Notes: a model not told the origin generated them from the sequence alone. A stretch of DNA of 64,000 bases from an uncultured bacterium (GCA_937862565.1 CALMFT010000032.1:3175-67174); one strand, 5' to 3'; numbered from the stretch's first letter, positions 1 to 53,106 are shown. Numbers and translations: made by a program.

Positions 1-120
1 TTCATAACATCCGGTAAGTTCCACATTTGAACTTGCAGATGCAGAGCTAGGAAGTAAAAGAATTCATAATCAGAAGACTGTTAATGCGCTAGCGATATAC
101 GTTTTGTTTGTAAATTTCAT
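1..120 (-). CDS. secreted/membrane protein, N-terminal fragment (gene runs off the left edge)
   Basis: ATG at 120-118. MKFTNKTYIASALTVF[TGA]L[TGA]ILLLPSSASA looks like a signal peptide when TGA is read as Gly. Confidence 0.4.
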
Positions 121-270
121 AATAAACTACTAATAATTTAAATATTTTTAGTCTAGTATAAAAGTAACTATTTGGAAGTTCATTGCAAATTTGGAGGAAA
201 TTGCAGTCAGAAAGGTGAGAAGAATAGATTTTCGCTTTTTTTCCGTCTTCAAATTATTACTACATAGAAT

Positions 271-11799: not shown

Positions 11800-11915
11800 T
11801 TATAGCTAATTACCCTCTTAGCCTATATATGCTGAGTTTACTAAGAATGTGTTGAAATTAACTCCTATTAATATAATAGTAAAAGTATCATCTTCGTTGA
11901 TGTTACTAATTATTG

Positions 11916-11989
11916 CGGGGTAGAGCAGTTCGGTAGCTCGCCGGGCTCATAACCCGGAGGTCAGTGGTTCAAATCCATTCTCCGCAATA
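11916..11989 (+). tRNA. tRNA-Met (CAU), initiator-like
   Basis: The cloverleaf can be drawn by hand. The anticodon loop is CTCATAA on a GGG/CCC anticodon stem. The sequence is close to bacterial tRNA-fMet (GCGGGGT.GAGCAG...GGGCTCATAACCCG...TTCAAATCC). No CCA is encoded. Confidence 0.85.
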
Positions 11990-21462: not shown

Positions 21463-22146
21463 TTATAATCCAACTCTTGTAAATAACTTATCAAGCTTTA
21501 TATTAGTTCTAGGAGTAGCTGTTTGAAGACTAGAAATGTCAGCTAAGGTATTAAGTTTATATTTGAGTAAAGCTATATCTGAGATCTCACGACTATATTC
21601 TTGATATTCTTTTACATCAGTGTCCGTTTGAAATCCTAGATTTCTCAAAGTTTTAAACATCCATCCCCATGCGTATCTTTCTCTCTTAGATTTTTCTGGA
21701 AAAGAACGTTCTTCACAATAATCTAATAAAACATCATTAGTAGTGCTTCATACAGGTGTCACCAAATCATCATATATATTTTTTAATTTTTTTACACTTT
21801 CCTGAAAATTAGGATCGTTCGCATGTCCTAATTCATGTAACAAGAAAGCTAATCCTCCATTTTTTGATAAAACTTCCTTAGACATACATACTATATTTTC
21901 TTCAGGATCAAAAAAACAAGCTTGTGGACCATAAAGATCTAAATATTTTTCTTTATCTCTAAAGTTTTCAAAGCTATAAATTTTCACCCCCGAGGGAATA
22001 AATTTATCTAAATAAATTTTCTTATCTTTGATAATTAAAGAAAGTTGAGTTAACTCACCATCTATGGATTCTTCATAGTTAATTTTTCCTAAAGATATAT
22101 TCCAATTCAGCATTTCATCTTGATATTGATCAAATTTTTCACTCAT
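21463..22146 (-). CDS. putative zinc metallopeptidase (HEXXH)
   Basis: Pieces 21748-22146 and 21463-21660 share a frame through TGA at 21748. The motif is FLLHELGHAND. The start could lie upstream at a non-ATG codon, because the frame stays open to 22323. Confidence 0.4.
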
Positions 22147-22394
22147 CTCATCAAGATAATCTAACTCATTTTCACAATATTTATCATAATAATATCAATG
22201 TTGACGTATATTTTCCAACACTATGGAAATATATTTATTAATAATTATTTTATCTAAAGTGTTAATTTGTTTATAGAAGTAATCTCTTTCTCATTCAAAG
22301 TATCAGAAATCTCTTCAGTTTGTTTATTTCATACTGATTTATTTTCTTTAGATTCAGGAGAAAGTGGGTTTATTTCTGACATTAATTAAAATAT

Positions 22395-24230
22395 TTATTT
22401 AAATCAATTTCTTTTTCTCATAGCTTCTAATTGTTCCACTGTTTTATCAAAAACCTTACCCAGTAATTCGTACCAAGCATCGTCTTTATATAAATCATTT
22501 CGTTTTTCTCTTCTGATATTGAATATTGTGTGCAAAGCTAAGGTGCCAATATCTTTATTATCATGTGAAATTTTGAATGACGTCATTCTCCATTCTGTGC
22601 CCTTGAACAATAAATACTCTAAAGCTTGTTGTGGATCAGGCGTATTGTCTACGGTTCAGTAGGTTTTTATAAGTAATTCTTTGTAAGTATTTTGTAGTCT
22701 ATTTTTTTCTTTTTCTTCAAGATACTTTATTTTGGTATTTAATTCTTCTTGAGTGAGGTTAAAAACCTTACCCAGTAATTCGTACCAAGCATCGTCTTTA
22801 TATAAATCATTTTTTCTCTCTCTTCTGATATTGAATATTGTGTGCAAAGCTATGATGCCAATATCTTTATTATCATGTGAAATTTTGAATGACGTCATTC
22901 TCCATTCTGTGCCCTTGAACAATAAATACTCTAAAGCTTGTTGTGGATCAGGCGTATTGTCTACGGTTCAGTAGGTTTTAATGATTAATGTTTTACAAAT
23001 ATTTCTTACTAATTCTGAAATTTGTTCCACTGTTTTATCAAAAACCTTACCCAGTAATTCGTACCAAGCATCGTCTTTATATAAATCATTTCGTTTTTCT
23101 CTTCTGATATTGAATATTGTGTGCAAAGCTAAGGTGCCAATATCTTTATTATCATGTGAAATTTTGAATGACGTCATTCTCCATTCTGTGCCCTTGAACA
23201 ATAAATACTCTAAAGCTTGTTGTGGATTTGGTATGTTACCTTCATTATTTCCATATTTATTAATTACCAATTCTCTAGCAATCTCACTTGTTAATTTAAT
23301 TCTTTTAAGAGAGTTAGTTTTTTCTTTCTTTGTTTTTGATTCTTTATTTTTTTCGCGTGACATATCTTCTTGTGTTTCAGGACGATTCTCTTGAGTAAGG
23401 TAATTCAAAATAACAGTTTTTCGATCTGTAAGTCCTTGAGGATTAAGTTCTAGAGGATCTTTATAGGAGAAAAATTTCACTCTTGGATGGTTTACTGCAC
23501 GGTGATCTGATTTTTTGTAGGTGGTAAGTTCTTTTTTTGTGAGATGTCCCTCAGTGATATAACTTGCTTGTCCATAAAGATTATTGATATATAGAGTTTT
23601 GGGATAGGGAGTAGTAAGTTTGAAAACAATATATGATTTTTTTCTCATACTACGAGGATCTACTTTACCCTGTAGTGGACGATCTATGAGTTGTATATGA
23701 GGGTTTTCTTTGAGGATTTGTAGTACTAAAGAATATTTATCAAATTCTCTGGTATGTTGTTCTGGATTTCGATTTCAGTTAGCAAATCCTGTTTGGGGTT
23801 TTATTTCATCAGGAGGAAGTATAATGTCATCAATAAATTCTATTTCAGGGGAAATATTTTCTCATACTGATACTGATGATTGATCTTTCTTGCTAATGTT
23901 CTGTAAAAAGAGCTTTAAAGTATGGAAATTTAAGTTCTCTTCAGGAATTTGTAGGTTATTATCCTTGTTTGCTTGAATGAGTAATGCATGTTCTATGTTC
24001 ATAAGATTTCTTCCTATTTCTGAGGATATTGAATAACTTGTAGTAGAATTTTTTCGATCTTGCTTTATCACTTCTAGATATTCCATAATGAAAGATGTTC
24101 CTAGTTCGGGGTGACGTAGAAAGTCTTTTATGGAGTCTGATATTTGTTGTTGGGTGGTGTATAAAAGATCCATTGAATTAGTAGAGTGATTATTTCAGTT
24201 TTCTAATGAAGATAATTTTTGTTTATCCAT
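22395..24230 (-). CDS. tandem-repeat protein A (611 aa), paralog of 31720-33885, directly downstream of pilC
   Basis: Pieces 23862-24173, 22968-23648, 22656-22922 and 22404-22610 all share one frame and join through TGA. The C-terminal half is 3 copies of a ~100-aa module: PQQALEYLLFKGTEWRMTSFKISHDNKDIG..ALHTIFNIRRE..NDLYKDDAWYELLGKVF. Confidence 0.6.
22404..23232. repeat. near-identical tandem DNA repeats (period 312 bp, about 2.7 copies) inside gene 22395-24230
   Basis: Stretches of about 200 nt are identical by eye between 22438-22636 and 23032-23230. The junction string ...cttgttgtggatcaggcgtattgtctacggttcagtaggtttt occurs at both about 22605-22668 and about 22917-22980. Confidence 0.85.
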
Positions 24231-24257
24231 AAATCAGCTTATTTATTAATAAATATC

Positions 24258-25352
24258 CTATCCTCCCAAACTTGCACTGTCAATTACTGATCCGATCATC
24301 CCAAATACTGAAACTACGATCATCATAATCACGAAACCTACGAATATAATAAGGATTGGCTCGATAACCTTACCAAGATCATTGAGTCCTTTTTCTAAAT
24401 CTTGTTGGTACAGTGTAACGATGTTGGTAATAGCAGCCGGAAGATTAGCTGTACTTTCACCCACCTTGAGGAGAAGCAACGAATCTGCAGGTATAATATT
24501 GGTATGGAAGGACATATTCTGATACATGGTTTCACCCTTCTTCACACCTTTGAGAACATCATCAATCATATCCTGATATTGTGGCACTTTCATAATAGTT
24601 TTCATAAACTGAAGAACTTCTACATAGTTCATTCCAGATTGGAGAAGAAGCCTCATATAACGGAAAAATCTAATCATATGATAGTATTTTACCATCTTTC
24701 CAAAAGCAGGAGCATCGAGAATAAACTCATATCGCTTTTTCTTTCCAAAATCTGTTGAGAAAAAGAGAACAGCAGCAACTACAAAGAGCATAAATGTTAT
24801 GATGATTCATTGAGCATTATTACTTATGAAGTTGGTCATACTCATGATAGCTTGTGTATACCAAGGGATTACTACGTCAAAATCTTCTACAAGACTAAAA
24901 ATTTGTGGAAGTGCATATATAAACAGGAAAAACACTGCTACAATTGATAAAGTGAGAAGAATTACTGGATAAATCATTGCTGAAGTATACTTACCTTTGA
25001 TAGTACTTAAGAATTCATACTCTTCTGAAAGAAATCTCAATACACTCACTACCTCACCACTACCCTCTCCTGATCTGATAACATTCACATCACTATCATC
25101 AAAATACTGAGGATGTCTCATCATACCACGACTCAAACTTTCACCGGCCTTTAGATTATCATATAAGTTAGCTGATACCTTTTTTACTGCAAAGTTTGGG
25201 GAAGTATCTCCAATAGTCTGTATTGCTTCTACGATACTCACTCCACCATCCAGTAAATAAGCCAATTCTTTGAAGAAGAAAATCTTATCCTTGGTACTAA
25301 AGCTGGATACGTCGCGAGAATTGATAAATCTGAGAATAATCTGATCAAACAT
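24258..25352 (-). CDS. pilC: type IV pilus / T2SS platform protein PilC/GspF
   Basis: Pieces 24807-25352 and 24258-24791 share a frame. Two T2SSF repeats are present (FFFKELAYLLDGGVSIVEAI and RFFRYMRLLLQSGMNYVEVL), and the C-terminus is EPILIIFVGFVIMMIVVSVFGMI. Confidence 0.85.
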
Positions 25353-25383
25353 TATACTCTAAGTATATTGAAAACACTTTTGT

Positions 25384-26208
25384 ATGTCAAATACTATTTT
25401 TTTGACAAATCCAAGTCATATAGATATAATATACTATGTTTATTTTATAAATAAATGCATCTTGGAAACACTAGATACCAATCAACAGCCTATTAACTCA
25501 GATATCGTTAGTCAACAAGCGAATTTTATCCAAAAGCAAAATAAAGTTGCTGAGATAAAATACAAAATTTTTGCGTTTGTACTCTTGATTCTGTGTATTT
25601 GGTTTTGGGGATCGCTTGAATCCAAAATAGCCGAAGTAGATGCGCTTCATACCAATATTTCTGATATTAAAAATACAAATCAACTCTTAGATATCAAAAT
25701 CAAAAGTGATCAAACAAATAAAAAAATAATCTGATTAGCTAAAGAACAGTACGATCTTATCGTAAACTGTATTAATAAAAGAATCTGTAGTGGTATTACT
25801 ACTAACAAAGAAATCAGTTCCAATCTCGATAATCTCAGAACATTCTATCTTACTAATAAACTTGAAGGTACGAAAATGTCTATCGATCAAAAGCTTGTAC
25901 TCAAGGCAATCGATGATTATCTCCTCAAGAAAGACGGTAATAGTATTGGTCAAATTCAATCCATTACCTATGGTGAACAAGTAACGGTAAACGAAGAAAA
26001 AGGAATATTTAAACTCCCTATCAATGTACAAATTGAATTCTTTAATAAAGAAGAGTTTGTTAATTATATTCTGAATACTGAAAAATATCTTGATCCAGCA
26101 CTAAAATATCGTGTTTTCTTCAAGATTGTGAGCATGAATTATAATATTGCCAACTATGAAAGTCTTCAAAAAGTAACCATGCTTATGGAAGTGTACTATT
26201 ATAGGTAA
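25384..26208 (+). CDS. membrane-anchored coiled-coil protein, possibly a pilus-assembly (PilO-like) component
   Basis: Pieces 25384-25734 and 25876-26208 share a frame. It has a single TM helix (KIFAFVLLILCIWFW) followed by a coiled coil. The start is uncertain because a consensus promoter lies inside the 5' end. It is divergent from pilC. Confidence 0.35.
25402..25430 (+). promoter_or_regulatory. sigma-70-like promoter (TTGACA-17 nt-TATAAT)
   Basis: Perfect hexamers at 25402-25407 and 25425-25430 with a 17-nt spacer. Confidence 0.5.
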
Positions 26209-26328
26209 TCATTGTATGCTTAATATTTTTCAGAAAAATAAATTATATTACTAATAGTTATCTTACAATAATTGTATAATTCAACTTTTTATTTATAAAG
26301 ATAATATATTATCTTTTCACTGCCTAAT

Positions 26329-27096
26329 ATGAAATTATTAAACTTAATTACAGTACTCTATGAAGAGGACCCCAATCAATATAAGCTCGACATCGAAACC
26401 AATAAAAATCCTACTGAAGAAAAAGACTCGTCTAATGATAAACTCGATCGTGGAGAAGAACTAATAAAAGCTTTACAGGTTGAGCAAGAAACATCAAATA
26501 CTATAGATATAGAAGATTATGTTAAAAAAGGTAAAATCCTTACGTGTGATCAAACATGCACAGAGGAAAAAATTTTGTATTATTGTAGAATCCCAAAATT
26601 AAATCTTGATCTCACAAATATTCTTCAGACTATAAAAGATAAAATAGTGGAAGTAGAATGAAATCTTATTGATTTGTGAGTCTCATATTCTTATATGAAT
26701 CTTACTACCATTGGTGGGCATGCAATATTTACTGAACTTACAAATGCAAAATGACTTAAAGCGCTCAATTTTATTGTTAAAGATGCTAATTTTCGAAGAC
26801 TCCCAAATGCTGACGGGCTAGATGTTCTTAATTATATAGGCAAGCATGCAAATTTTCGAATTCTTAAAAATTCAAAGGGTTTAAAATCATTGTCTATTAT
26901 TGGTGGCAGTGCAGCTTTTTATGAGCTTCCCTTTTCAGAAGGATTAGAATCATTGTGATTTATTCGTAAGCATGCACATTTTAACGAACTTACCAATGGC
27001 GGTGGTTTGAGATCACTAAGTCATATTGGTAATGAAAGATTTTTTGCTAAACTCACTTACGAAGAAAAACAAAAAATCCCTGTTTTGAGAATTTAA
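26329..27096 (+). CDS. leucine-rich-repeat (BspA/LRR_5-like) protein
   Basis: The piece 26329-26661 is extended through 4 TGA codons. It carries ~23-aa repeats such as L.SL..IGG.A.F.EL....GL. Confidence 0.5.
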
Positions 27097-27164
27097 TTTG
27101 TTAATTTCTTTCTATTAACATCTTAAAATAAAAAATGTTGAATGATTATGAGCAAAAAAATTAC

Positions 27165-27200
27165 AAAAACACTGCCCTGTTATAGGACAGTGTTTTTTTC
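27165..27200. terminator. bidirectional terminator between convergent genes
   Basis: A5-ACACTGCC...GGACAGTGT-T7. Confidence 0.6.
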
Positions 27201-27216
27201 TTAATGGAAATTCAGA

Positions 27217-29772
27217 TTATTTTTTCTTCATCTTAAACTTACTATTTGGTACAGCTGCAGATTCTCCGTCTTTCTTCTCTTCCCAAGGTCTATATACCAT
27301 AACAATGTTGTTGTTGGTAATCTGAGCGAGTGTTGCCTCTGGTTCATCAAGTTTCATAGTATCGTTGTGTAAGGTCTTGAGTTCTTCATTATCGAGTTTG
27401 ACACGGATATTTCCTTCATTGATTGGTAAGGCTCCAAGCATTGATTCAGTACGTTTTATGGTTGCACTGAGTTGCCCTGTTTTCGCTCTACGAGATTTTT
27501 TGAGATCATCTACATTGAGTAAGAGAGCAGAGTTATTTGAGTATACTAAGATAAATTCTTCATCTGTATATCTAAACATACTTGCTATGCTATCATCGCC
27601 TTTGAGATCAATTGCTTTTACTCCTGCGGCACCTTTTCACATTGGTCTGAGTTCTCCTTCTGGGAATAATAACAATTGTCCTTGTTTAGAGATAATACCA
27701 AGATGTTCTTTATCCTTGGTAGGCACTACAGATATAATGTGTTCATCTTTCTCCAATCCCATTACTACTGTTGGGAATTTTTTGAAACTCAATAAGAGAT
27801 CTTTTTTAATCTTCTTGAGTGTATTATTATTACTGAGCATACACAGGTAATCATAGTCATCTTCCATAGTCTCACATAATACTACTTTACCTTTGAGTCC
27901 TCGGAATTTAACAGGATCAAGCGGGTCTGACTTTGGAGTATGAGATGGTAAATCTTTAAGTCTATGAATTACGAGCTCTCCAATATCTGTGATAACTATT
28001 AGTTTATCTTGATTGTTTGTATAGACCATATGCACTGTTTCTTCTGCAATGTTCATAATTCTTGTTTGATATACTATTTTTACCTTACTTTCATTATCAA
28101 TGAGACAAATTACATCTTCTTTTTTGAGATCTTGGAGTTTGATGAGTTTCTTGAAATCTCCAGACATATTTCCTACATCATCACTGATTTCAGTTCTTCT
28201 AGGATCAGCAAATTTATTTTTCACTTCTTCAAGTTCCTGAGTAACTACTTCATCGAGTTTAGCAGGATTATTAATAATATTTCTAAGTTCTTCCACGAGA
28301 GCTTTTTTCTCTCCCATTTCATCAAGTACTTTCTGGATTTCTAATCCTACCAATCTACCCAAAGTAAGCTTGAGGATAAAGTCAGCTTGAACATCAGTAA
28401 AATCAAACTCTTTTATCAATCTTTCTTTTGCTTCATCAGTAGTTTGACTAGACCTGATTATAACAATAATAGCATCAATGATATCAATCGCTCTTTGTAG
28501 ACCTTCAAGAATATGTAATCTATCTTCAGCTTTTGCTAATTGGAATTTTGATCTTCTTAGTACTACAATTCTTCTAAAATCAATAAACTCTTGTAATAGA
28601 TCCTTGATATTAAGGAGTTTTGGTTGACTTGCATCTTCTACTAAGGTTACATTATTTACTGAGAAAGTAGTTTGTAAGCTTGTATATTTATATATTTGTA
28701 ATAATATTTCCTGTGGATCAAATCCTTTCTTCACTTCAATGCTCACTCTGATAATAGTATTTGCTGATTCATCAATAATATCTGTGATACCTTCTATCTT
28801 TTTATCACCTACGAGTTCTCCTATTTTTTCCACTATGGTAGCTTTATTGGCTTGATAAGGAATCTCATCAATAATAATAAATACGCCATTTTTACCTTCT
28901 TCAATATGTGTTTTTCCTCTTACGATAATACTTCCTTTTCCTTTTCTATAAATTTCTTTAATATTCTGACTATCAAACATTATTCCTCCGGTTGGAAAAT
29001 CTGGACCCTTAATGACATTCATGATTTCATCTATAGACAGCTCACCACTTTTTTCAGTTATTTCTTCTTCTATTATTTCTTCTTCTCCAGCTTCATTGAG
29101 GATGGTAGAGGTTTTGGTTTTTGTAATTTCAATTGGGTTTCTTGCTCTTTCCATCATCAAAAGCATAGTTTCAATGACTTCACCAAGATTGTGAGGAGGC
29201 ATATTTGTCGCCATTCCTACTGCAATACCCATGGTACCATTACAGAGGTGATTTGGGAATCTAGTAGGTAAATATCTCGGTTCTTTAGTGCTATTATCGT
29301 AATTATTTCTTCGATCTACTGTATCTTCATTGATATTTTCTAACATATATTCTGAAAGCTTAGTCATTTTTACCTCCGTATATCTTGAGGCAGCTGCACC
29401 ATCTCCATCGATACTACCAAAGTTACCTTGTCCATCCACCAACGGATATCTCATTGAAAAATCCTGTGCAAATCTAACCATTGCTTCATAAATAGAACTA
29501 TCACCATGTGGATGATATTTACCCATAGTTTCTCCTACAACAGTAGCTGATTTTCTATATTTACCAGCAGAACCAACTCCCATATCATACATAGAGTACA
29601 AAATTCTTCTATGTACAGGTTTGAGACCATCTCTGGTATCAGGTAAGGCTCTCATCACAATAACCGACATCGCATAATCTACGAACGATTGAGAAATTTC
29701 AGATTCAATAGGTTGATTAATAATATTTTTGTCTTCTGGCGTGAAAAGATCCTTTCAAGAAGCTTGAGTCAT
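27217..29772 (-). CDS. gyrA: DNA gyrase subunit A
   Basis: Pieces 27637-29670 and 27217-27579 share a frame. RALPDTRDGLKPVHRRILY, GKYHPHGDSSIYEAMVR and the beta-pinwheel RPM[TGA]KGAAGV are present. ATG at 29772. Confidence 0.92.
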
Positions 29773-29916
29773 AGCAAATAATCTGTATAATTAAATGGGT
29801 TAAACGGTTTGATAAGCTCAATAGATAATTATTATATTTGATTTTGCAAAAGCTTATAGACTGATAAATGCACTATCTATTTACAAATAAATTTTTGAAA
29901 TGGTTTTATTTTGTAT

Positions 29917-31707
29917 TTATTCTCTTTCGGCAAGTTCAAACCATCTTTTTTCTTTTTGTTCTCCAAGCTTCACCAACTCACTCAGCTCTTTACTGAGTAA
30001 TACAATTTTATCAGAATCCAAATCTTCTTGAAAAGCAGCATTTATCTCATCTTTTCTCATATCCAATGTGGCTATTTCATTACCGAGTTGTTCAAATTCA
30101 CGTTGCTCATGATAGCTCAGTTTCTTAGGGATTATCTTCTCTTTTTTGATTTCTTCCTGTATATCTACTTCCTCATCTTTCTGATTATTTTTTTTCTTTG
30201 ATTTCACAATTTCAGTCTTATTATTTTTATAATCACTATAATTACCTCGATAATCTCAGATTTTACCTTCTCATTCAAACACCAAAACGTGCTCTACAAG
30301 CTTATCTAAGAAATATCTATCATGAGAAATTATCAATAAACATCCAGCATACTTCATCAAGAAATCTTCCAAAATCGTCATGGTTTCTATGTCTAGATCA
30401 TTGGTTGGCTCATCCAAAACGAGAACATTAGGATTTTTGATGAGGGTAATACACAGTTGAAGACGCTTGCGCTCTCCCCCACTCAATCCAAACACCTTAG
30501 ATTGTTGCTGTCTAGGATCAAAAAGGAAATTTTCCAATAACAAGGAAGCTGATATTCTTTTGTTTCAGATAATCATCGCTTCTGCAAACTGTTTGATATA
30601 TTCTATAATAGTCAGGTTCGTATCTTCAATCTGCTCAGATTGACGGTAATAACCGAGAGTTACAGTAGGACCAAATTGCACATCCCCGCTATCATAAGGT
30701 TCCAGCCCAGCAATGATATTTACCAGCGTAGATTTCCCCATTCCATTGTCTCCCAATATTCCGATACGCTCGCCCTGTTGCAGATTATAGGTAAAATCTT
30801 TAATAATAATCTGATCTCCAAATGCTTTATTGAGCTTATTAATCTTGATAATTTTACCTCCCAGTCTTCTTTCTTCCACTGAAAGTTCAATCTTCTTGGA
30901 TTGCTTGAACTGTATATCTTTCTTCTCATAAAAGTCAGTTTTGATCTCTTTGAAGTCTGCTATTCTATCCACTTTTTTAGTTTGTCTTCCACTTGGAGCT
31001 CTTTTCATCCATGCAAGTTCCGCTGTATACAGCTGTTTGAGCTTATGTAACTGAGTAATTTCCATCTCTTCACGCTCAGATTTTTTGTACAAATATTTTT
31101 GATAGTTACCCTCATATTGATGGAGTTTTCCTTTGTTGAGCTCTCGAATGTCTGTACAGACACGTTCCAGAAAATACCTATCATGGGTAATCATAAACAC
31201 GGTGATATGTGACCTTTTGAGATAGTTTTCCAATCGATTGATCATATCAATATCCAGATGATTGGTCGGTTCATCAAGCAGTAAAAACTGCGGTTCATGC
31301 ATCAAAGCTTTCGCCAACTCCACGCGTTTACGCTCTCCTCCTGACAATATATTGATTGATTTCTCTAGCAAAGGCTTCAGATTCAGAATATTTATCATTT
31401 TATTAATCTTCACTTCATGCTCTCGATCTTCTTGTGTTATAGATTTTAAATATTCAGACACTAATTCGCTGCTGGCATTTTCGCTTTGTTGTGCTAAGAA
31501 AGTAATTTCTATACTCTTATTGAAAAGAATATCTCCATCATCAACTTGTTCAAGCCCTTGGAGTAATCTAAATAAAGTAGATTTCCCTGCTCCATTCTTT
31601 GCTACCAAAGCAACCTTTTGTCCTTTTGTAATAGCAAAATCTACCCCGTTGAGTAGAGGTTTTAGTCCATATGATTTATGTAAGTTTTTTACTTGGAGAT
31701 AATGCAT
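29917..31707 (-). CDS. ABC-F family ATPase (Uup/EttA-like)
   Basis: Pieces 30565-31707, 30271-30543 and 29917-30207 share one frame. Two NBDs are present (GAGKSTL...LSGGERKR...LLLDEPTNHLD and GMGKSTL...LSGGERKR...LVLDEPTNDLD), followed by a C-terminal coiled coil. Confidence 0.85.
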
Positions 31708-31719
31708 AATTACGTACTA

Positions 31720-33885
31720 CTATACTTTTCTTTTCTTTGATTTCAATTGTTTGATTTCTGCAATATCTTTATCAAAGATTTTAGCGAGCAATTGGAATCG
31801 TGTTTCTTCAATAAAATAATCATTATTATCAGACTTGTGAATACCACATTTGCCAGCTAAAAATGTTAATGCTTTTATTTTTTTATTTAACATTATCTTG
31901 AATTCTTTTGTTCTTCGTATTATACCTTGAACAGCTAAAAATTCTAAAGTTTTTTGTTCTGTTCCTTTTCCAAAATCTTCCATGACTCTTTGTTTAATAA
32001 GTTCGGGAGTAATAATATCCATTTCGATAGGAGTATCAAAAATTTTAGCCAGTAATTCATACCAAACATCTTCTTTATAATATTCCCCATTTTTCTCTCT
32101 GAATATTCAATATGTCTTAGCCATAACTATTACTGACATTGTTTCATCTTGTCATTCTGGAGTAATTTTGAAGATTTCTTTTATCCAAGTTAAGTTTTTG
32201 AGAAGCAAAAAATTTAGAGCCTTCTGTCCGGTGGGTTTTCATTCTTTTGAAGTTCCATACTTTTCAATGATAGCTTTTTTTATGAACGTCTGTTTTCTTT
32301 TGATAATATATTCTTTATTTAAGCCGAAAAATTTACTTAAAAATTCTTCTCGTGCACCTTGAGTATAGTAATCATTACTTTTCTCTCTATGCACGTCAAA
32401 TAAAGTATAAAGAGCCATAAGTTTTATTTCTTGGTGTCAATATTCTATTTTAAATTGGCTTTTTGATCGAGAGGATTCTTTAGACATTAGAAAATCTTGA
32501 GTTTTTTGAATATCTCCATCACCATACGTTTCAATTATCTTTTTTCTTGCGATATCAGGAGTTAGTATTTCAGTATGAAATTCTTTATCAAAAATTTTTC
32601 ATAAAAGTTCATACCATGCACTATCTTTAAAATATTCTGAAGAAGATTTTTTTTGTATTCAAAAGAGTTTTGCAATCCTAACAGTACCTATATTTTCACC
32701 ATTATAAACTATTCTAAAATTAGCCACTCTCCATGCATGACCATGAGAAAGCAAGAATTCTTCTGATTTTTGTACGCTAATACTTCCATCTTCAAGCTTT
32801 CCGAAGGTTTCTAGGATATTTTCTTTTACTGCTTTTAATACAAAAGCATCCGGCTTTAATGTTTTTTTCTTTCCAGTATGAGAGCTAGTGCTTGTTTTTT
32901 TAGTAATTTTTTCGAATGGTTCAACTTTACATTCAAAAATTTTACCTAATAATTCAAATCGAGCACTATCTGCATAAAGTTCATGGAAATCTTCTCTATA
33001 AACCTTATATTGTTTTGCAAAAAATACTAAAGGTTTCCATGCTCCATTTATCGATACTTTGAAAAATTCCTTTCTCCATCTAATAGTTTGTTTATGTAAA
33101 AATCCCAAAACTTCTTCTTGCGTAAGATGAATTCAATCTTTATTAGAAAATTTCTGAATAATAGCTTTTTTAAGACTATTCTTATCCAAGTATACGATAT
33201 CATTTTTTATTCTTATTTTTTTTCACTGAGTATTTTTGGTTTTTGTATTATGCTGTCGAGCACTATCTTCTAAAGATTGAGCTAATTTATGTGTATATAA
33301 TGCGGAAAGTGGTTTTACAACTTCTTCAGAAGCAACTTCTGGAAGTATATTTAGATTTTGTAGTGATTTAGATGTTGTTCGTTCATTCATTCGTTCTTCT
33401 TTGGTTTTTCCTTCTCAGCTTGATTGAGATCCACTACTTTTATTTAGATTATTTTTGCTAATCTCTCTTAGTTTTTGTTTGAGTCTAAATATACTGAGAT
33501 CTTGTGGCCAAATTCCAAGTTGATTATCTACGTTAGCAAGACCTAGTAAAGACTGATCGATACTTACAAGTTTTTGTGCTACTTCATGTATATTAGGAAT
33601 TTTCAAAGTGCTTATGTTTCCCAAGTGATTACCTCTATCAAGAGTTTCAATAACATCTACTTTTGTACGTGCTTTACTTTTCCAGCTTATTTTTATCTCT
33701 TCTATTATTTCGATAACTTCATCAAGTCCCATTACACCATATTGTAAAAAATCTTTAATAATCTGAGAAATATCTTCTTGAGCTTTTTGTAAAAAATCCA
33801 CTGAAGCATTTTTACTTTGTAATTGATTTTTCAGTTGTACATGATTTCTCGGGAGAGAAAGACTTGGATTTGTATCTTGAGACAT
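31720..33885 (-). CDS. tandem-repeat protein B (721 aa), paralog of 22395-24230, directly downstream of pilB
   Basis: Pieces 33415-33885, 32659-33108 and 31720-32022 share one frame and are bridged by TGA-containing sequence. There are 5 diverged copies of the same ~95-aa module (...EFLL.....W......FKI......IG......F.REK...Y..D.WYELL.KIFD). The N-terminus ISQIIKDFLQYG resembles ISDSIKDFLRHP of protein A. Confidence 0.55.
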
Positions 33886-33915
33886 ATACTAAAATATCAA
33901 TTTAAATACCTTCTT

Positions 33916-35481
33916 TTATACTACTCTTCTTACTTCATCCATCGTAGTCATACCTTTATATACTTTGATAAGAGCATCATCAAGCATGGTAACATATCAT
34001 TTCTCTCTCAGACCATCAATCATATCCAATCCGAGTTTTCCTTCGAGAATCATTTTACGATCTTCTTCCGTAGGTTCAAAAATTTCAGACACTGCTACTC
34101 TTCCGCTAAATCATTCACCTTTCATATTGGGTTCAAAAATTGTCGGTTTACCATCAATATAGTCTGGATAATGTTTATGAACATATTCTAATTCTTCATC
34201 AAGTTCAGAATCTTCAAATTTAAAGTTTTTAACAGGAATCTTATCATCAGCAAGTTTTCTCATCAATCTTTGACCGATAATCATATTGAGAGCTGGAGCC
34301 AATAAGTAAGGTTTTACACCCAAGTTGAGTAATCTAGAAATAGTGTCCAAAGCATTGTTGGTATGGAGAGTAGAAAATACCAAATGCCCTGTAAGTGCAG
34401 CATTTATGGCAGCGTTGGCAGTGTCTAAATCTCTAATTTCTCATACAAGAATAATGTCAGGGTCATGTCTAAGTACTGCTCTTACTCCATCTGCAAAATT
34501 ATATCATTGATCTTCATGAATTTGAGATTGTTGAATACCAGGAATTTCATATTCCACTGGGTCTTCGAGAGTTACTATTTTTACATCTGGATTATTGAGG
34601 TAAGCCAACATACTATACAATGTTGTAGTTTTACCACTTCCAGTAGGACCCGTTACGAGAATAAGTCCTGTATTTTTTTCTATATTACGTGTCAATACTG
34701 GTATATGATAGGGAGCAAAGCCAATATCACTAAAGGTCATGATAGATTTTCCACTATCCAAAAATCTAATTACTACAGATTCTCCCCTCAATCCAGGCAT
34801 AAACGAGACTCTGGCATCAATTTTTCTAGGGTTTTTATCTGTTCGTACTTGAAAATCAAACCTTCCATCTTGTGGTACTTCAGATACATTCATCTTTACT
34901 CAGGACATATATTTTATCTTCATAAGATAGACTGCAAATTCTTGATGAGTCAAAGAAGCTACTGTTTCCAATATACCATTTCTTCTGAGCCTCAGCATTA
35001 CCGCTTGTTGTTCACCTTGTAAGTGCATATCACTCGCTCCAGATTGAAAAGATAATCTTACCAATTCTGTGATGAGATCTACTTCAGAAAATTCTCCTCT
35101 GTGTTCTAGGGTTTTTTTGATCTCTTCCACTGCTTTTTCACCTACTACTTCAAGTCTATAATCCTTTCTCAATTCAAGTTGTTTTTCATAATCTAACATC
35201 TGATCATATCGACCCAATGCAATTTTAAATCCTACATCGTCAGTATAATATACATCTACAATATAATTCTTTTTTTGAAGACTAGAAATAATCTGATCTA
35301 CTTTATCGGCTACATTATTAGTAGTAAGAAGCGATAATTGTTGACCTTGTACTCATTTTTTCTCCCATACCAATACCTGATCTTGTATTGCTTGTTCCTT
35401 AGGAATAAGTTTCAAAACGTCAAAATTGGCTTTCAATCAAGCAATATCAGTAGGCTGAAGGATACGATTTTCTGAGTTCAA
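33916..35481 (-). CDS. pilB: type IV pilus / T2SS assembly ATPase PilB/GspE
   Basis: Pieces 34900-35217, 34504-34893 and 34111-34383 share one frame. Walker A is [10 protein letters not shown], the Asp box is [15 protein letters not shown] is present, and there is an N-terminal GSPII_E_N-like domain. The start is uncertain (TTG at 35481 is consistent with the promoter at 35515-35543). TAA at 33916. Confidence 0.85.
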
Positions 35482-35514
35482 AGCACTAATGAGGAGTAAT
35501 AAAAATATCACTCA

Positions 35515-41305: not shown

Positions 41306-41380
41306 GCCCGTATCGTCTAATGGTTAGGACACGGGACTTTCAATCCTGCAATCGGGGTTCAATTCCCCGTACGGGTACCA
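41306..41380 (+). tRNA. tRNA-Glu (UUC)
   Basis: Cloverleaf drawn by hand. The anticodon loop is CTTTCAA, the T-loop is TTCAATT, and the 3' CCA is encoded. Confidence 0.85.
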
Positions 41381-41435
41381 CCTTTGATGTATACAGTAGA
41401 TAATTGTGAGAATAAAATAATCTGAATAAAGTTGG

Positions 41436-41513
41436 GGGCGATTAGCTCAGCTGGCCGAGAGCATCTCGTTTACACCGAGAGGGTCGTAGGTTCGAATCCT
41501 TCATCGCCCACCA
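41436..41513 (+). tRNA. tRNA-Val (UAC)
   Basis: GGGCGATTAGCTCAG...TCTCG-TTTACAC-CGAGA...GGTTCGAATCC...ATCGCCCACCA, with the CCA encoded. Confidence 0.85.
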
Positions 41514-46215: not shown

Positions 46216-49200
46216 TTATTCTTCATTATACAAAGTGTAAGTTATCGTAAATGTATATGTTCAAATACTTGTATAGGCTGGGATAAGAAGTTTGATATTC
46301 AACTTAGCGCCATATACTCAAGGAATATTATTGTTTATTCCACTTGGGCGATAGATAAAGTTGTATATACTATCTCATGGCTGATATGTTGCCAATCCTG
46401 TGTTGAGTAAAACATTTGGGTTTGGGAATCAAGAAATATTTTGTAGTCATCCAGTAGTTTGGACTTGTATATTAGAGTTACTCAAAACGTTAGCATTTGA
46501 TCATGATAGATCAGTAAATTCTAAGGTAGTGTAATATCAAGTATCACTAGCTTTTTCGTCATTCAGTTCAAAATAATCTGTATCAAAACTAATCTCTTGA
46601 TCGTAACCATGCGCTTGTATAACTCCACTATAGATAAAATCTGGTGCTGTAATACATAGCTTGTCTGCCGGTGTGTATTGGATATTGATATATCAAGTTG
46701 CGATATTGGACATTCCTCAACTTCCATCTGTTACTTGGTAGGTAAAACTATCCATCCCGATAAATCCAGTATTCGGTGTATATAAGAATCATCAACTACT
46801 ATAAAGAGTTATAGTTCCTGAAAGCGTTCACAGCACAAGCGAGACAGTATAAGGTCAGTTTATAATTTTTCAGCTTATATAGTCTATATCTATATCATTT
46901 GAAGCTACTCCAGAAAGCACAGATATCAATAATCAGGTGTTTGGTTCGCCATAATAATTATCATTAATTGCTGTTGGCAAATCATTGATACATGTTACTG
47001 TAATCTGCACAGTGCCTGTGTTTGAATGAGAAAAATCATCATATGCTACATAAGAAAAGTTATCCACTCCACAATAGTCGGGATCAGGTTCATACAATAT
47101 TCCAGTTGTTCAATAAAACGATATTGTACCATGAAGTGGGGAACCAAAAGTTTCTATTGGTCATAGATAGAGCGGATCTCAATCAGGATCATAATCATTT
47201 GCCAAGATATATACTACTCAAGTTCCATCCTCATTGATAGTTCAAGTATCATTAACAGCAACTGGAGATGTATTTGGACAAAGGACGGTGACAGAAACTG
47301 TTGCTGGAGATATACTTAACTTCCCACTAGAGTCCACTAGAGAATAGGTAAAATTATCAATTCCACATCCTGTTCATGTTGGTACATATCGATTATTACC
47401 TCAGCTCATTATAATTGTTCCCAGACTTGGAGTACTCATTCCTGTAAAGGTAAATGATTGACCTGTGTTTGGGTCATAATCATTTCAAGTAAGTTGAAGT
47501 GAAACAGGAATGGCGTTTGGTGTTGAGAAAGAATCATTTATTGCGACAGGAGCAAGATTACTACAAGGAACAGTAATCGTAACCACTCATGTATTTGATA
47601 TATAAGTTCCAGTCGATCAATCAGTAGGTGTTTGTCATACATATTGAACAAAAGGTGTTCTCAAAGATCTAGTTGTTGTAAGAGTAGTTAAAACATTTCA
47701 TCCACGAGATAAACTATTTACTGGAGAAACATAACCATAAAATGTATTTAAACTATAAGCCGCTGGATAACTTGTTGTTGTCGTAATAATATTTGATTCT
47801 TTGTATATAAAATAACCTCTTGTGTTTGCAACTGAAGCAACTCAAGTTGATAAGTTTACTCAGGTTGAACCTGTTCCGTAGCCATTGTATAATTTTAATT
47901 GGACCGCTGCTGTTCCATTGGTTTGGAATGAAGCAGCATAAACAAGTTTTCATACAGGTATGGAATTTATACTTGGCTCTACTGTGTTATTGCCAAACGC
48001 AAGAGTAGATAATCAGGTATTTGCTGCGCCATACAAGCTTACTTGAGACATAGCAGTTATATCATTATATTCACTTTGTGTAATTGATACCCACGTTTTA
48101 GTTCCTGCACTATTATAGTTTGTCAAACTTGAACTCAATTTTGAAGCTGCCGCCTCATTTCATTTATAGAAATAGTCATCCTCTATTTTATATGTAAAAC
48201 TTGTAGTTCCACAAAATCATGGTTCAGGTACAAATTTTACTTTGTTTCAGGATATAGTTACACTACCACTCAGTGGTTGAGATAGTCAGGTTATTGTTGC
48301 TCATGAACTTAAATTTACATCATTATTTAGAACAGATATCAAACCTGAAGTGTTTTCTGCCACTGAACCAGTATCGTCAAGAGCTGTCGGTTTATCACAG
48401 TTTACGGTAATACTAATTGTTCCTGTATTTGAGATATAACTAGCTATCGATGAATCACTCGTTGCCAAGCCCTGTAGTTTGAATAGATACGGGTATAAAT
48501 TTGATACGCTTGTAGTGTTTCATGGGCTGTATCTACTCCATGATTGTGGCGACCCAACTAAACTCGACGCAGCAACCATATTGGAATTTTGATACATACC
48601 TAGTGCTCAATTCGTAGCGATATTCTTATCAGCTCATTTAAGAATATAATAAGCATCTTGACCAACGCCTGTAGAGACTAATCATGGTAATTGATTTCAA
48701 ATAGTCTGACCAGAAGTGTATGCAGAATTAAATAATTTAACTAATGATCAGCTAGTGTAAGTTTTAACTGCTTGTGTTTTAAATCTTATAGCATAAATAT
48801 AATTATTTGCTGGCACTGCAAATCCCTGATAGCTTGAAATGCTACCTGATCACAAAGCCATCGTATATCAAACCGCTCATCGTGCATATTGTGAAGCATT
48901 CATAATATCGGCATTAGCTCCTACAGTAACAGTATTGGTAACTCATGTTGATAATGAATTATACTCTGAAAATGTGATTTGTACCCAGTCTCACACGCTT
49001 GCATTTCTATATCAAGTCTTACTACTTACCAAAGAATTTTCAATCGTTCACGGTTCATTTTGTAATTGGTAGTTTATCTTTTCTGTCCCACAGAATCCTT
49101 TAGATGGTTGATAGCTAACATTTCTTCATGATAAGCTCATAATTCAATTTTGAGCACCAGTCAAATTTATAATTTTTGTACCCGTAATAACCAATAAATC

Positions 49201-52200: not shown

Positions 52201-53106
52201 TTTCAAATACTGTTCTCTATACTCATCTAGACTAAGTTTATTTTTACTTACTATACGCACTCCATCAACTACATATCGTTTGTCATCATCTCACTTTAAA
52301 ATTGTAAATCTATGTCCTTGATATGCAATTTCCTTATATTTAGCCTCTTTAAAAGCTATAATATCAAAAACAGTATTATCATTTTTATTATAACTTTCAT
52401 CCAATGCAGAAATAAATTTTTCAGGGTTTTCTTTTACTGAATCATAATTTACTAAATCAGTATATTGAGCCCAAAGATCTATCGCATCTCATCTGGGTAT
52501 ATTTTTTAATCAAGTTACTTTACTAATATACAAATATGTATCATATGAACAAAAAGTCATAGAATTATTTTCCCTATAAGTTCTGAATGGAAATACAGAC
52601 GATAGATTAACTTTCCCATTTTCATCAAAACGTGTATTTATAAATGGTTTGATGGTAACTATCTTTCAAGAAATTTCTTCATCTGTTCATGAAATGGATC
52701 AAAATTCTCATATGCTTTCTTCACTTATTCAGTCATTATTATTAGTTTTACTATCATTTTCACTTCAAGTTTGTGTCATTTGAAAATTATATAATACTCA
52801 AATTCACTGATTTACTTGATTCAAGATTTCTCAATTCATCAATACACTTTCTGAGTTTATTTTTGTTTCTTCACTTGTCTTAATTTTATCTCACAAGTTT
52901 TCTGATTGTTGCTCAAGTTGTGAATCAAATAGCGCTCAAGATGGCTCAGTTGTTTTTTGTATATCAGAAAAACTATTTTGCTGTTTATATGCTTCTATCT
53001 CAGCATCATTTAAATATATATCTAAATAATCTGAAAAAATAGGAGTATAATTGAAACAGTTTATCGTAAACAAAAAAACAAACATAAAGTTGAGTTTCTT
53101 GAACAT
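46216..53106 (-). CDS. giant secreted surface protein (2296 aa): signal peptide, ~900-aa N-terminal region without recognised domains, RCC1-like repeats, cadherin-like/Ig-like domains
   Basis: I translated it codon by codon in one frame from ATG at 53106 (MFKKLNFMFVFLFTINC...) to TAA at 46216, with no TAA/TAG and more than 100 in-frame TGA codons. The RCC1-like repeats (about 49600-50650) read C[W/CGA]G.N..GQLGDG....P. At least 5 modules read NDxxDP.G....GT...YTP..GFCG.D.F.Y.V.D...SNTG.V.I.V.C. Only track ORF 51715-51927 overlaps it. Confidence 0.75.

Follow-up and report, generated by a model that had tools for sequence, protein, structure and literature searches.

Tandem-module proteins encoded directly behind pilB and pilC in a TGA-recoded bacterium look like fast-changing accessory genes

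Two paralogous genes in a 64-kb window (the whole stretch of DNA analysed here), one directly behind the pilus platform gene pilC (gene A) and the other directly behind the extension ATPase gene pilB (gene B), look like fast-changing accessory genes and not like parts of the pilus. On the best reading of their sequences, the encoded proteins belong to a very small undescribed family restricted to TGA-recoded candidate-phyla bacteria of the Absconditabacteria/Gracilibacteria type. Adjacency to pilB and pilC is a real pattern in this genome, since two paralogs directly behind the only two pilus genes would be expected by chance with a probability of the order of 1e-3 (an estimate, based on roughly 50 genes), but its generality fails: linkage of the family to pilus genes was seen in one genus-level clade only.

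Results

Genetic code and gene content

Standard translation (table 11) produced fragmented reading frames; genetic code 25 restored intact ones, and the extents and lengths given for both genes in an earlier note on this DNA (Table 1) proved exact under this code. No tRNA-Gly(UCA) was found within the 64-kb window, so the code was tested through PilB alignments instead. The five TGA codons of pilB aligned to glycine (4/5 in solved PilB, 5/5 in PilF), including those within the motifs GEIRD and G[YF]xGR, which verified TGA = Gly.

The window carries roughly 50 genes, among which pilB and pilC are the only pilus genes. The pilB product was closest to PilB/PilF extension ATPases (E = 7e-75); the start of the gene is uncertain (35481, 35511 or 35727), and 35511 is the one taken by public gene calls. 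As described previously, gyrA and an ABC-F gene separate the pilC–A and pilB–B pairs. Each paralog lies on the same strand as the pilus gene before it, with a spacer of 30 nt from the pilB stop to the B start, in agreement with the earlier value, and of 27 nt from the pilC stop to the A start, where 28 had been given. Promoter-like sites scoring 11/12 were present upstream of both pilB and pilC, and a further one precedes the A start codon by 25 nt. Neither the pilB–B spacer nor the pilC–A spacer contained a terminator-like hairpin.

Table 1 Coordinates of genes, protein regions and sequence signals in the window
Feature	Position	Strand	Remarks
Gene A, 611 aa, 6 TGA=Gly codons	22395..24230	-	code-25 ORF
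A N-terminal region, aa ~20-120	23871..24173	-	common to A, B, C1; motifs ISDxI..FL...EYL.VIK; ALL..AN..N.L.I
A middle domain, aa ~153-285	23376..23774	-	A-type proteins only
A module 1, aa 313-413	22992..23294	-	sequence modelled by AlphaFold
A module 2, aa 414-517	22680..22991	-	module profile match
A module 3, aa 518-611	22398..22679	-	module profile match
Gene B, 721 aa, 9 TGA=Gly codons	31720..33885	-	code-25 ORF
B N-terminal region, aa ~28-150	33436..33804	-	homologous to A and C1 N-terminal regions
B module array, five modules	31723..33189	-	module profile matches
B module, aa 233-334	32884-33189		
B module, aa 335-440	32566-32883		
B module, aa 441-528	32302-32565		
B module, aa 529-624	32014-32301		
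B module, aa 625-721	31723-32013		
pilC (T2SSF platform protein)	24258..25352	-	two T2SSF stretches, E=1e-38; directly upstream of A
pilB (T2SSE extension ATPase)	33916..35511	-	T2SSE E=9e-97; directly upstream of B
Promoter-like site TTGACA-17-TAGGAT (10/12)	24255..24283	-	consensus match only; inside pilC 3' end
Terminator-like hairpin	27165..27197	-	only strong one in pilB-B-ABC-F-gyrA string; after gyrA
Variable HELGH gene downstream of A	21463..22394	-	227-aa HELGH-motif ORF (21463-22146) + degraded 5' part

Architecture of proteins A and B

Protein A consists, in order, of an N-terminal helical region, a conserved middle domain, a Lys/Glu-rich linker and three tandem modules, while protein B comprises an N-terminal region, a disordered linker and five diverged modules, with no middle domain. 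The two are paralogs, aligning with 29% identity over ~600 aa (E = 3e-64), and their N-terminal regions alone were 32% identical over 117 aa (E = 3e-8), which substantiates the shared N-terminus proposed before. B was 99% identical to the database cluster P0001, present on nine contigs. A has no transmembrane segment and no signal peptide, and no hydrophobic segment was found in either protein; because they lack one, both are predicted to be soluble and cytoplasmic.

The N-terminal region is predicted to be helical in a low-confidence model, and the AlphaFold model of a whole A-type protein had a pLDDT of 40.5, too low to assign the N-terminal and middle domains. The middle domain matched no known family and contains the strongly conserved motif SMR..SY.V..L.TPYPK.[IL]Y[IV]NN.YGQA[ST]YI..GHL...EL..Y.K.D...F.YKDP; a GIY-YIG or PD-(D/E)xK reading of its motifs, made by eye, was dropped for want of profile support. 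A, B and the related protein C1 had no match in Pfam or NCBIfam, known pilus and competence families (PilM/N/O/Z, ComE/ComF etc.) included.

The repeated module

Individual modules of A and B were detected with i-Evalues of 1e-25 to 1e-47, and no further copies were present outside A and B in the 64-kb window. The earlier description of ~95–104-aa modules, three near-identical in A and five diverged in B, was reproduced: those of A were 87–91% mutually identical at the DNA level, those of B 25–35% at the protein level. The core reads W[RK]...FKI, a beta-hairpin, IF and then WYELL.KIF, and forms an alpha+beta domain, for which AlphaFold returned a confident model of A module 1 (pLDDT 89.9, pTM 0.82). 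A Foldseek search with this single-module model, a check that the earlier note had proposed, gave no significant match in PDB or BFVD (best E = 2.4 and 0.98, respectively; TM<=0.31), and the module sequence had no match in Pfam, NCBIfam, PHROGs, PADLOC or PDB sequences, in keeping with the suggestion that the family is undescribed. Judged from the predicted structure, the module apparently represents a previously undescribed, new fold.

Resemblance of the module to Bro-N/KilA-N DNA-binding domains had also been raised. The likeness is one of similar size and of a W/F-rich motif by eye only, and it found no backing in searches: none of 23 modules matched PF02498 or PF04383 at E<=5, whole proteins gave no match at E<=1, and Bro-N appeared once among the Foldseek matches (rank 21, E = 3.9, TM 0.23). 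Homeodomain, XRE, C-protein and TetR structures recurred among the top Foldseek matches, all of them small targets with E>2, probability <=0.11 and TM<=0.45; no helix-turn-helix family of Pfam matched the 23 modules at E<=5, nor was there a significant HTH or winged-helix fold match. A weak match of P0012 to DUF7833 (E = 5e-4, below cut-off) did not recur in the 23-module scan and was discarded. Module pI ranged from 6.9 to 9.8, which is neutral to mildly basic only.

Family size and members elsewhere

HMMER, run exhaustively against 1.84 billion representative proteins, recovered only six relatives, all of which carried tryptophan at TGA sites and are therefore taken to originate from TGA-recoded bacteria. 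In databases, proteins from recoded genomes are cut at TGA codons or have Trp in their place, and word-indexed searches gave only self matches or table-11 fragments. One locus was returned by a motif-limited scan of 185,579 species genomes. Among phages, no PHROG match and no tblastn match in 50,697 phage genomes were obtained. IMG/VR held no true match, the degenerate DNA pattern for W-Y-x-L-L-G-K-I-F giving 31 chance matches, and the same pattern in metagenomes gave chance matches only, among the matches listed. An alignment search of metagenomes and viral contigs for the N-terminal and middle domains, which used poor patterns, returned nothing.

Four architectures were distinguished: A-type (N-terminal region, middle domain, modules), B-type (N-terminal region, modules), module-only and helicase fusion. 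A and C1 share long invariant motifs and aligned with 39% identity over 307 aa. PADLOC gave no meaningful match for B (P0001), the A orthologue (P0013) or P0010. The only fusion with a known domain was P0015, a single protein on a single 2.9-kb contig, in which ResIII and Helicase_C are followed by four modules of a shortened, distant variant (E = 1e-7). Its motor was nearest to type I R subunits, a Dnd restriction enzyme, PDB 7clg and the PADLOC type IV mREase profile, and the helicase part alone matched the mREase_IV, PbeA and REase_I motors in PADLOC; no nuclease domain was found on this partial contig.

Gain, loss and neighbourhood among strains and lineages

The order pilC–A recurred in L001, L007 and L170, and pilB–B in L001–L006. 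L002 was ~99% identical to the window from pilB to pilC, yet lacked A, and in the sister lineage L007 pilB was followed directly by the ABC-F gene, so that B was missing; pilB and pilC stayed intact in both. In the L008 lineage (ABC-F 91% identical at the amino acid level), the slot of B held a family member 24–34% identical to B's modules. L015–L017 carried an A-type gene and a module-only gene (C1/C2) between a P-type ATPase and a Na/Pi cotransporter, and no T2SSE or T2SSF gene occurred within 7–10 kb of the family members of L015–L017 and L167. The A-type gene of L167 was a pseudogene with three in-frame TAA codons and a frameshift, identical in three samples, and had no pilus genes within 10 kb on either side. 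Gene neighbourhoods differed completely among the window, L015 and L167, with no conserved partner. The earlier note had proposed a pilus or competence accessory family and had named homologs unlinked to pilus genes as the observation that would speak against it; A was missing in L002 and B in L007, and L015–L017 and L167 had family members away from pilus genes, so that the proposal is not supported. Adjacency is the only positive evidence for a functional tie to the pilus within the clade.

Module number in A was one in L170, two in L007 and three in the window and L001, these counts coming from short-read assemblies that may be collapsed. Every L008–L013 contig breaks off within the array, and the array of L007 is interrupted by a 100-N gap. 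A position-by-position correspondence between the five modules of B and the arrays of C2 or L008 was considered and rejected. Collectively, the A and B genes are dispensable and turn over fast, as shown by their presence or absence in near-identical strains, the variable module number and the concerted evolution of A's modules, and also by the mosaic structure of the A locus described below, the pseudogene in one lineage and the unrelated neighbourhoods of distant members.

Recombination and selection at the A locus

In the comparison with L007, dS was 0.74–0.91 in pilB, ABC-F and gyrA, 0.011 in A codons 1–300, 0.015 in the HELGH gene and ~1.0 in the last module of A. The drop in A and the HELGH gene relative to the flanks indicates that the A locus is a recombination mosaic. 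Both genes sit in the same near-identical segment, which also takes in the last ~150 nt of pilC (~100% identical to L007) and the promoter-like site upstream of A. Given the 100-N gap in the L007 array, the mosaic in that lineage could partly be a strain-chimeric co-assembly. Site-specific insertion was rejected, as the junctions shared no sequence beyond shuffle expectation and showed no target-site duplication.

The last module of A had an omega of 0.16, corresponding to purifying selection; an arms-race sensor should show overt diversifying selection, and its lack here is an observation against the explanation preferred below. In the HELGH gene, alternative C-termini follow a conserved ~40-aa N-terminus: L007 and L170 have the intact gene (311 aa), and in L002 an unrelated 199-aa C-terminus replaces it. 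No HELGH-type neighbour was present beside B, C1/C2 or the L167 gene.

Discussion

The explanation that we prefer for these data as a whole, with a confidence somewhat short of even, is a lineage-restricted family of dispensable cytoplasmic array proteins, possibly engaged in nucleic-acid or target recognition and not part of the pilus machinery. The slot behind pilB and pilC would be specific to one genus-level clade, with A and B occupying permissive operon-end positions behind strongly promoted genes; such slots would be maintained and exchanged by flank-mediated homologous recombination, and the proteins would have no mechanistic role in the pilus machine. The module array may serve as a target-recognition array, most likely binding nucleic acid, which we propose because the P0015 array sits C-terminal to a restriction-type SF2 helicase motor; this fusion is the only functional clue for the module. 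On this view the effector or catalytic function would fall to the middle domain of A-type proteins, and the family would act in genetic conflict or foreign-DNA handling instead of pilus assembly. Slot occupation accounts only loosely for the double pilus adjacency, and no shared junction sequence was found. The modest module charge, the lack of a significant HTH or winged-helix match and the distant, shortened form of the helicase-fused modules speak against nucleic-acid binding.

Rather unlikely, in our estimation, is a role for A and B as accessory factors of the pilus or of competence in this clade, in which they would be co-transcribed with pilC and pilB, their shared N-terminal region would bind or regulate the platform and the ATPase, and their arrays would act as scaffolds or binders of incoming DNA. 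The close same-strand spacing behind the only two pilus genes with no terminator between, the recurrence of both gene orders, the low chance expectation and a cytoplasmic location compatible with contact to PilB or the cytoplasmic domains of PilC all speak for such a role. However, A is missing from a ~99%-identical strain and B from a sister lineage, both of which retain intact pilB and pilC, A-type genes of L015–L017 and L167 lie away from pilus genes, one of them has decayed to a pseudogene, and the recombined segment brings its own promoter-like site upstream of A. There is also no similarity to a known pilus protein or PilB cofactor family: PilB cofactors and pilus-operon accessories (PilZ, FimX, PlzR, PilM) are likewise cytoplasmic, encoded directly beside pilB/pilC and probably co-transcribed, whereas PilZ, GGDEF/EAL and actin-like domains are absent from A and B, which are much larger and repeat-built and show no conserved co-occurrence with pilus genes.

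We give a similarly low probability to protein-binding arrays acting in inter-bacterial or phage conflict, in which each module would bind a protein target and not nucleic acid, in the manner of tandem immunity or sensor repeats, and which could tie to the polymorphic HExxH gene downstream of A. Strain-level presence and absence, allele replacement at fixed slots and concerted evolution would fit, as would the modest module charge, the location of A and the HELGH gene in one near-identical segment and the alternative C-termini of the latter behind a conserved N-terminus. The classical gene order of such systems is toxin, then immunity, whereas here the array lies upstream of the putative toxin; moreover, B, C1/C2 and L167 lack a HELGH-type neighbour, A and B match nothing in PADLOC or among known immunity and toxin families, and the helicase fusion fits DNA targeting better. 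That the genes are non-functional junk, or an artefact of gene calling in a recoded genome or of repeat assembly, is very improbable and already largely refuted. Although one lineage holds a pseudogene, no function can be assigned and the repeats do break assemblies (the L008–L013 contig ends, the L007 gap), intact ORFs of 500–720 aa occur in several lineages, the conservation between A and C1 and the omega of the module indicate constraint, B is identical or near-identical on nine independent contigs, the fold prediction is confident and TGA = Gly is verified.

Returning to the recognition arrays that we prefer, nucleic-acid-reading repeat proteins are built from TALE 34-aa, PUF 36-aa or PPR 35-aa repeats. 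Like them, A and B repeat a single type of module in tandem, in numbers that vary between alleles, and their arrays show concerted evolution or recombination. Their module differs in being three times longer and a self-contained alpha+beta unit with a beta-hairpin, in contrast to a helical hairpin, and has no sequence or fold similarity to these repeats and no evident RVD-like hypervariable positions. In type I and type IV restriction enzymes, recognition or assembly domains lie C-terminal to the motor, and the P0015 array follows a ResIII + Helicase_C motor nearest to type I HsdR, type IV SauUSI-like enzymes and PDB 7clg; unlike these, A and B have no helicase, the P0015 modules are shortened with no nuclease domain on the partial contig, and the modules are not similar to SRA-like or HsdR C-terminal domains. 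A hypervariable Gracilibacterium gene encodes an extracellular protein with PTD tripeptide repeats, 3-aa repeats in a coil region (PMC6851277). Like A and B, this gene contains repeats, varies between strains, belongs to a TGA-recoded CPR genome and breaks up assemblies, but A and B are predicted to be cytoplasmic, have folded modules of ~100 aa and are unrelated in sequence.

A more specific possibility, which we regard as unlikely, is that the module is a new fold serving as the programmable recognition unit of a recoded-CPR-specific system that senses foreign nucleic acid, for example DNA entering via the competence pilus, with arrays that stand alone, are joined to an effector-like middle domain or extend a restriction-type helicase. 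If true, recognition of DNA from the competence pilus would explain why two family members lie behind pilB and pilC.

A gene is not a pilus component just because it neighbours pilB and pilC in one genome, and a tempting guilt-by-association call is corrected here. Absconditabacteria and Gracilibacteria are uncultivated, recoded and host-dependent, and a large share of their genes is without assignable function. One such family is now defined: its domain architectures are described, one module has been modelled with confidence, and in populations the genes are gained and lost, change in copy number and recombine at fixed slots. Should the module turn out to be a new recognition fold, it would add a new type of modular binding array and also point to how bacteria with tiny genomes handle foreign DNA or conflict.

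Genetic code and gene organisation

With translation table 11, TGA interrupts every long gene of the region. Under code 25, in which TGA is read as glycine, long open reading frames were recovered across the window, and those of pilC, pilB and the two proteins A and B downstream of them coincided exactly with the ORFs of the earlier note. The reassignment was verified, at the level of sequence, by alignment of pilB (nearest to the extension ATPases PilB/PilF, E = 7e-75; PilT, 4e-39) to solved PilB and PilF: its five TGA codons stood opposite glycine in four of five cases in PilB and in all five in PilF, including the invariant glycines of GEIRD and G[YF]xGR. Code 25 should be accompanied by a suppressor-like tRNA-Gly(UCA), but none was found within the 64 kb. 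Spacers measured 27 nt from the pilC stop to the A start and 30 nt from the pilB stop to the B start, with recX located beyond A and ligA beyond pilB. A giant-protein ORF (2296 aa) was also present at 46216-53106 (-).

Coordinates of features in the window (unless another contig is named) and parts of A-type proteins
Feature	Position	Strand	Remark
A	22395-24230	-	611 aa, code 25
B	31720-33885	-	721 aa, code 25
pilC	24258-25352	-	two T2SSF stretches, E = 1e-38
pilB	end at 33916		T2SSE, E = 9e-97
ABC-F	29917-31707		between pilB-B and pilC-A pairs
gyrA	27217-29772		between pilB-B and pilC-A pairs
tRNA-Met(CAT), tRNA-Glu(TTC), tRNA-Val(TAC)	11913-11988, 41306-41513		only tRNA genes of the window
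Promoter-like site, 11/12	35543-35515	-	upstream of pilB
Promoter-like site, 11/12	25390-25362	-	upstream of pilC
Promoter-like site, 10/12	24283-24255	-	inside pilC 3' end, 25 nt before A start codon
Terminator-like hairpin	27197-27165	-	only strong one; after gyrA
Zone 1 (sliding windows)	24410-23283		~100% identity to L007; last ~150 nt of pilC through A middle domain
Zone 2 (sliding windows)	23282-22160		67-92%; module array, spacer, 5' part of HELGH gene
Zone 3 (sliding windows)	beyond zone 2 to contig end		97-100%
Polymorphic gene 3' of A	21463-22394	-	window copy
Polymorphic gene 3' of A	L007 10301-11236
Polymorphic gene 3' of A	L002 15815-16414
Putative A-type pseudogene	L167 9009-10513		also L168, L169
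A-type part 1	aa ~20-120		N-terminal helical region
A-type part 2			short conserved linker, IILPPD.xI[KR]P
A-type part 3	aa ~153-285		middle domain, long invariant stretches
A-type part 4			linker rich in Lys/Glu
A-type part 5			module array

Architecture and novelty of the family

The paralogy and arrays proposed earlier were borne out: A and B aligned over ~600 aa (29% identity, E = 3e-64), and a module HMM detected three modules in A, five in B and no further copy in the 64 kb. Copies within A shared 87-91% DNA identity, those within B 25-35% protein identity. The middle domain of A-type proteins carries the motif SMR..SY.V..L.TPYPK.[IL]Y[IV]NN.YGQA[ST]YI..GHL...EL..Y.K.D...F.YKDP; B has an N-terminal region related to that of A (32% identity, E = 3e-8) and its five modules, without the middle domain. 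Transmembrane segments and signal peptides were absent from both proteins, which are cytoplasmic.

Modules (pI 6.9-9.8) share the core I..xYG, A..xL, W[RK]...FKI, IG, IF, D..WYELL.KIF. AlphaFold2 modelling of A module 1, using the remaining modules as the alignment, gave a confident prediction (pLDDT 89.9, pTM 0.82) with the predicted topology helix, helix, short helix, beta-hairpin, four helices, while a full A-type model was of low confidence (pLDDT 40.5). In Foldseek, a check suggested in the earlier note, the best module matches were E = 2.4 in PDB and 0.98 in BFVD (query-normalised TM ≤ 0.31), leaving the predicted fold unmatched in these databases; the non-significant matches repeatedly include small HTH proteins, a lead rather than a result. 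Neither the whole proteins nor 23 individual modules at E ≤ 5 matched Pfam, so the suggested Bro-N/KilA-N resemblance found no support. PHROGs, NCBIfam and PADLOC gave no match, nor did PDB sequence profiles for the modules or the N-terminal/middle region. By its distance from known families the family is categorically new (the earlier note had called it possibly undescribed), with no sequence relative and no fold relative in PDB or BFVD.

Among 1.84 billion representative proteins, searched exhaustively with the module profile (HMMER), there were six matches; in all of them Trp occupies the positions of TGA-encoded Gly in A and B, so all stem from TGA-recoded genomes called with code 4. In 185,579 species genomes a motif-limited scan yielded one locus (L007), and relatives were absent from the 50,697 phage genomes and from IMG/VR. 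These few relatives point to a very small, lineage-restricted family, bearing in mind that gene calls are fragmented in recoded genomes and that, among the matches listed, the last metagenome scan had only chance hits; it is new, tiny and confined to recoded CPR bacteria, phyla in which orphan families are common.

Synteny across lineages

Five contigs of the same species (L001, L003-L006) repeated the window layout identically. A further contig, L002, matched the window at ~99% identity over the pilB-pilC stretch and at ~90% farther on, with an unrelated 199-aa ORF in place of A and the 227-aa gene. The sister lineage L007 (amino acid identity 91% in ABC-F, 88% in GyrA) kept pilC-A, with two modules in A; its ABC-F begins 73 nt after pilB, and hence B is missing. 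L007 (CAYVXG010000015.1) is labelled 'Candidatus Peribacteria' (Peregrinibacteriota); code 25 doubles its coding content and its nucleotide identity to the window is ~84-92%, rising to about 100% in the segment of the A/HELGH exchange, which makes the label doubtful and a TGA=Gly lineage more likely. A third, roughly equidistant lineage (L008-L013; ABC-F 91-93% amino acid identity) had a family member upstream of ABC-F with modules 24-34% identical to those of B and nearer those of A; these contigs stop inside the array, so that pilB is out of view. The low-coverage contig L170 showed the order pilC-A-HELGH with one module.

In a distant lineage (L015-L017), an A-type orthologue with two modules (C1; E = 7e-62, 39% identical along 307 aa) is followed by a module-only protein with five (C2). 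The pair has a P-type ATPase on one side and a Na/Pi cotransporter on the other, and the retrieved flanks, of about 6-7 kb in L015 to 10 kb in L016, contained neither T2SSE nor T2SSF. In another (L167-L169), an A-type gene was read as a fixed pseudogene: it has three in-frame TAA codons and a frameshift, with 100% identity among three independent samples; no pilus genes occurred within 10 kb either side. One of the TAA codons adjoins a module's conserved YG loop.

Taken together, these contexts reveal homologues unlinked to pilus genes, an outcome that the earlier note had named as refuting its idea. Adjacency to pilB/pilC is limited to one clade, A and B are both dispensable while pilB and pilC are intact, and the family genes are copy-number variable and recombining. 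The earlier interpretation thus holds in part: the family is undescribed, yet it is not a conserved pilus or competence accessory.

Recombination and variable neighbours

Between the window and L007, dS was 0.74-0.91 for pilB/ABC-F/gyrA (omega 0.06-0.08), 0.011 for A codons 1-300, 0.015 for the HELGH gene downstream of A (named for its HExxH motif), and ~1.0 for the last module of A (omega 0.16). The pattern is that of a recent exchange of the A+HELGH cassette by recombination between diverged lineages, with the array evolving separately or swapped; since the L007 scaffold comes from a co-assembly and its array is interrupted by a 100-N gap, strain chimerism may underlie the mosaic. The A and B junctions had no sequence in common and no target-site duplication, which disfavours a site-specific mobile element and argues for flank-mediated homologous recombination.

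The gene 3' of A is intact in L007 and L170 (311 aa, HELGH), whereas in the window its 5' part has decayed, leaving a 227-aa ORF and a remnant; the L002 protein of 199 aa has only the first ~40 residues in common. From sequence, this conserved N-terminus with alternative C-termini resembles a polymorphic toxin-like organisation; the HELGH gene had no Pfam match. Segment 26210-27158, with a 255-aa ORF (26329-27096, +) of ~23-aa leucine-rich-repeat-like units (GLKALNFIVKDANFRRL...) unmatched in Pfam and NCBIfam, is missing from L007 and hence is another strain- or lineage-variable insertion, in the gyrA-pilC interval.

Transcription signals

Promoters and terminators were sought by consensus scans only, which detected no terminator-like hairpin in the pilB-B or the pilC-A spacer. 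The promoter-like site before A falls within the exchanged segment. A conserved hairpin with T-run (ACTACAA...TTGTAGTTTTT) directly upstream of ABC-F in L007 (2212-2284) and L008 (~700-735), lineages without B or with a different family member, respectively, is lost in the window, where 12 nt separate the B stop codon from the ABC-F start codon. At 25362-25430, back-to-back near-perfect sigma-70-like promoters (11/12, -, pilC; 12/12, +) separate pilC from a divergent single-TM ORF (25384-26208, 274 aa); the 12/12 site lies just within the annotated start, so the true start is possibly farther downstream.

Possible function

The one functional clue is a fusion on a single short contig (P0015, locus L014), an SF2 helicase (ResIII + Helicase_C; ATGSGKT, DEGH, TATP, QQFGRGLR) followed by four shortened modules. 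Closest to its motor are the R subunits of type I restriction systems, a Dnd restriction enzyme, the 953-aa 'putative helicase' PDB 7clg (E = 2e-8) and a PADLOC profile for type IV methyl-directed restriction. In restriction enzymes of these classes, the region C-terminal to the motor holds domains for target recognition or assembly, and by position the array is therefore a candidate for recognising DNA or a partner.

A clade-specific pilus regulator seems unlikely: the double adjacency in the window (~1e-3 by chance, by our estimate) is incompletely explained and keeps this reading alive, but the family lacks general linkage to pilus genes, and A and B can be missing beside intact pilB and pilC. 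Arrays that bind protein in conflict or immunity, perhaps in connection with the polymorphic HExxH gene, are likewise improbable, and junk or artefact is highly implausible. We tentatively favour, at somewhat below even confidence, putative target-recognition arrays, probably for nucleic acid, in which the middle domain of A would act as effector in conflict or foreign-DNA handling; the slots 3' of pilB and pilC would then be permissive, well-transcribed operon ends whose occupants are swapped by homologous recombination.
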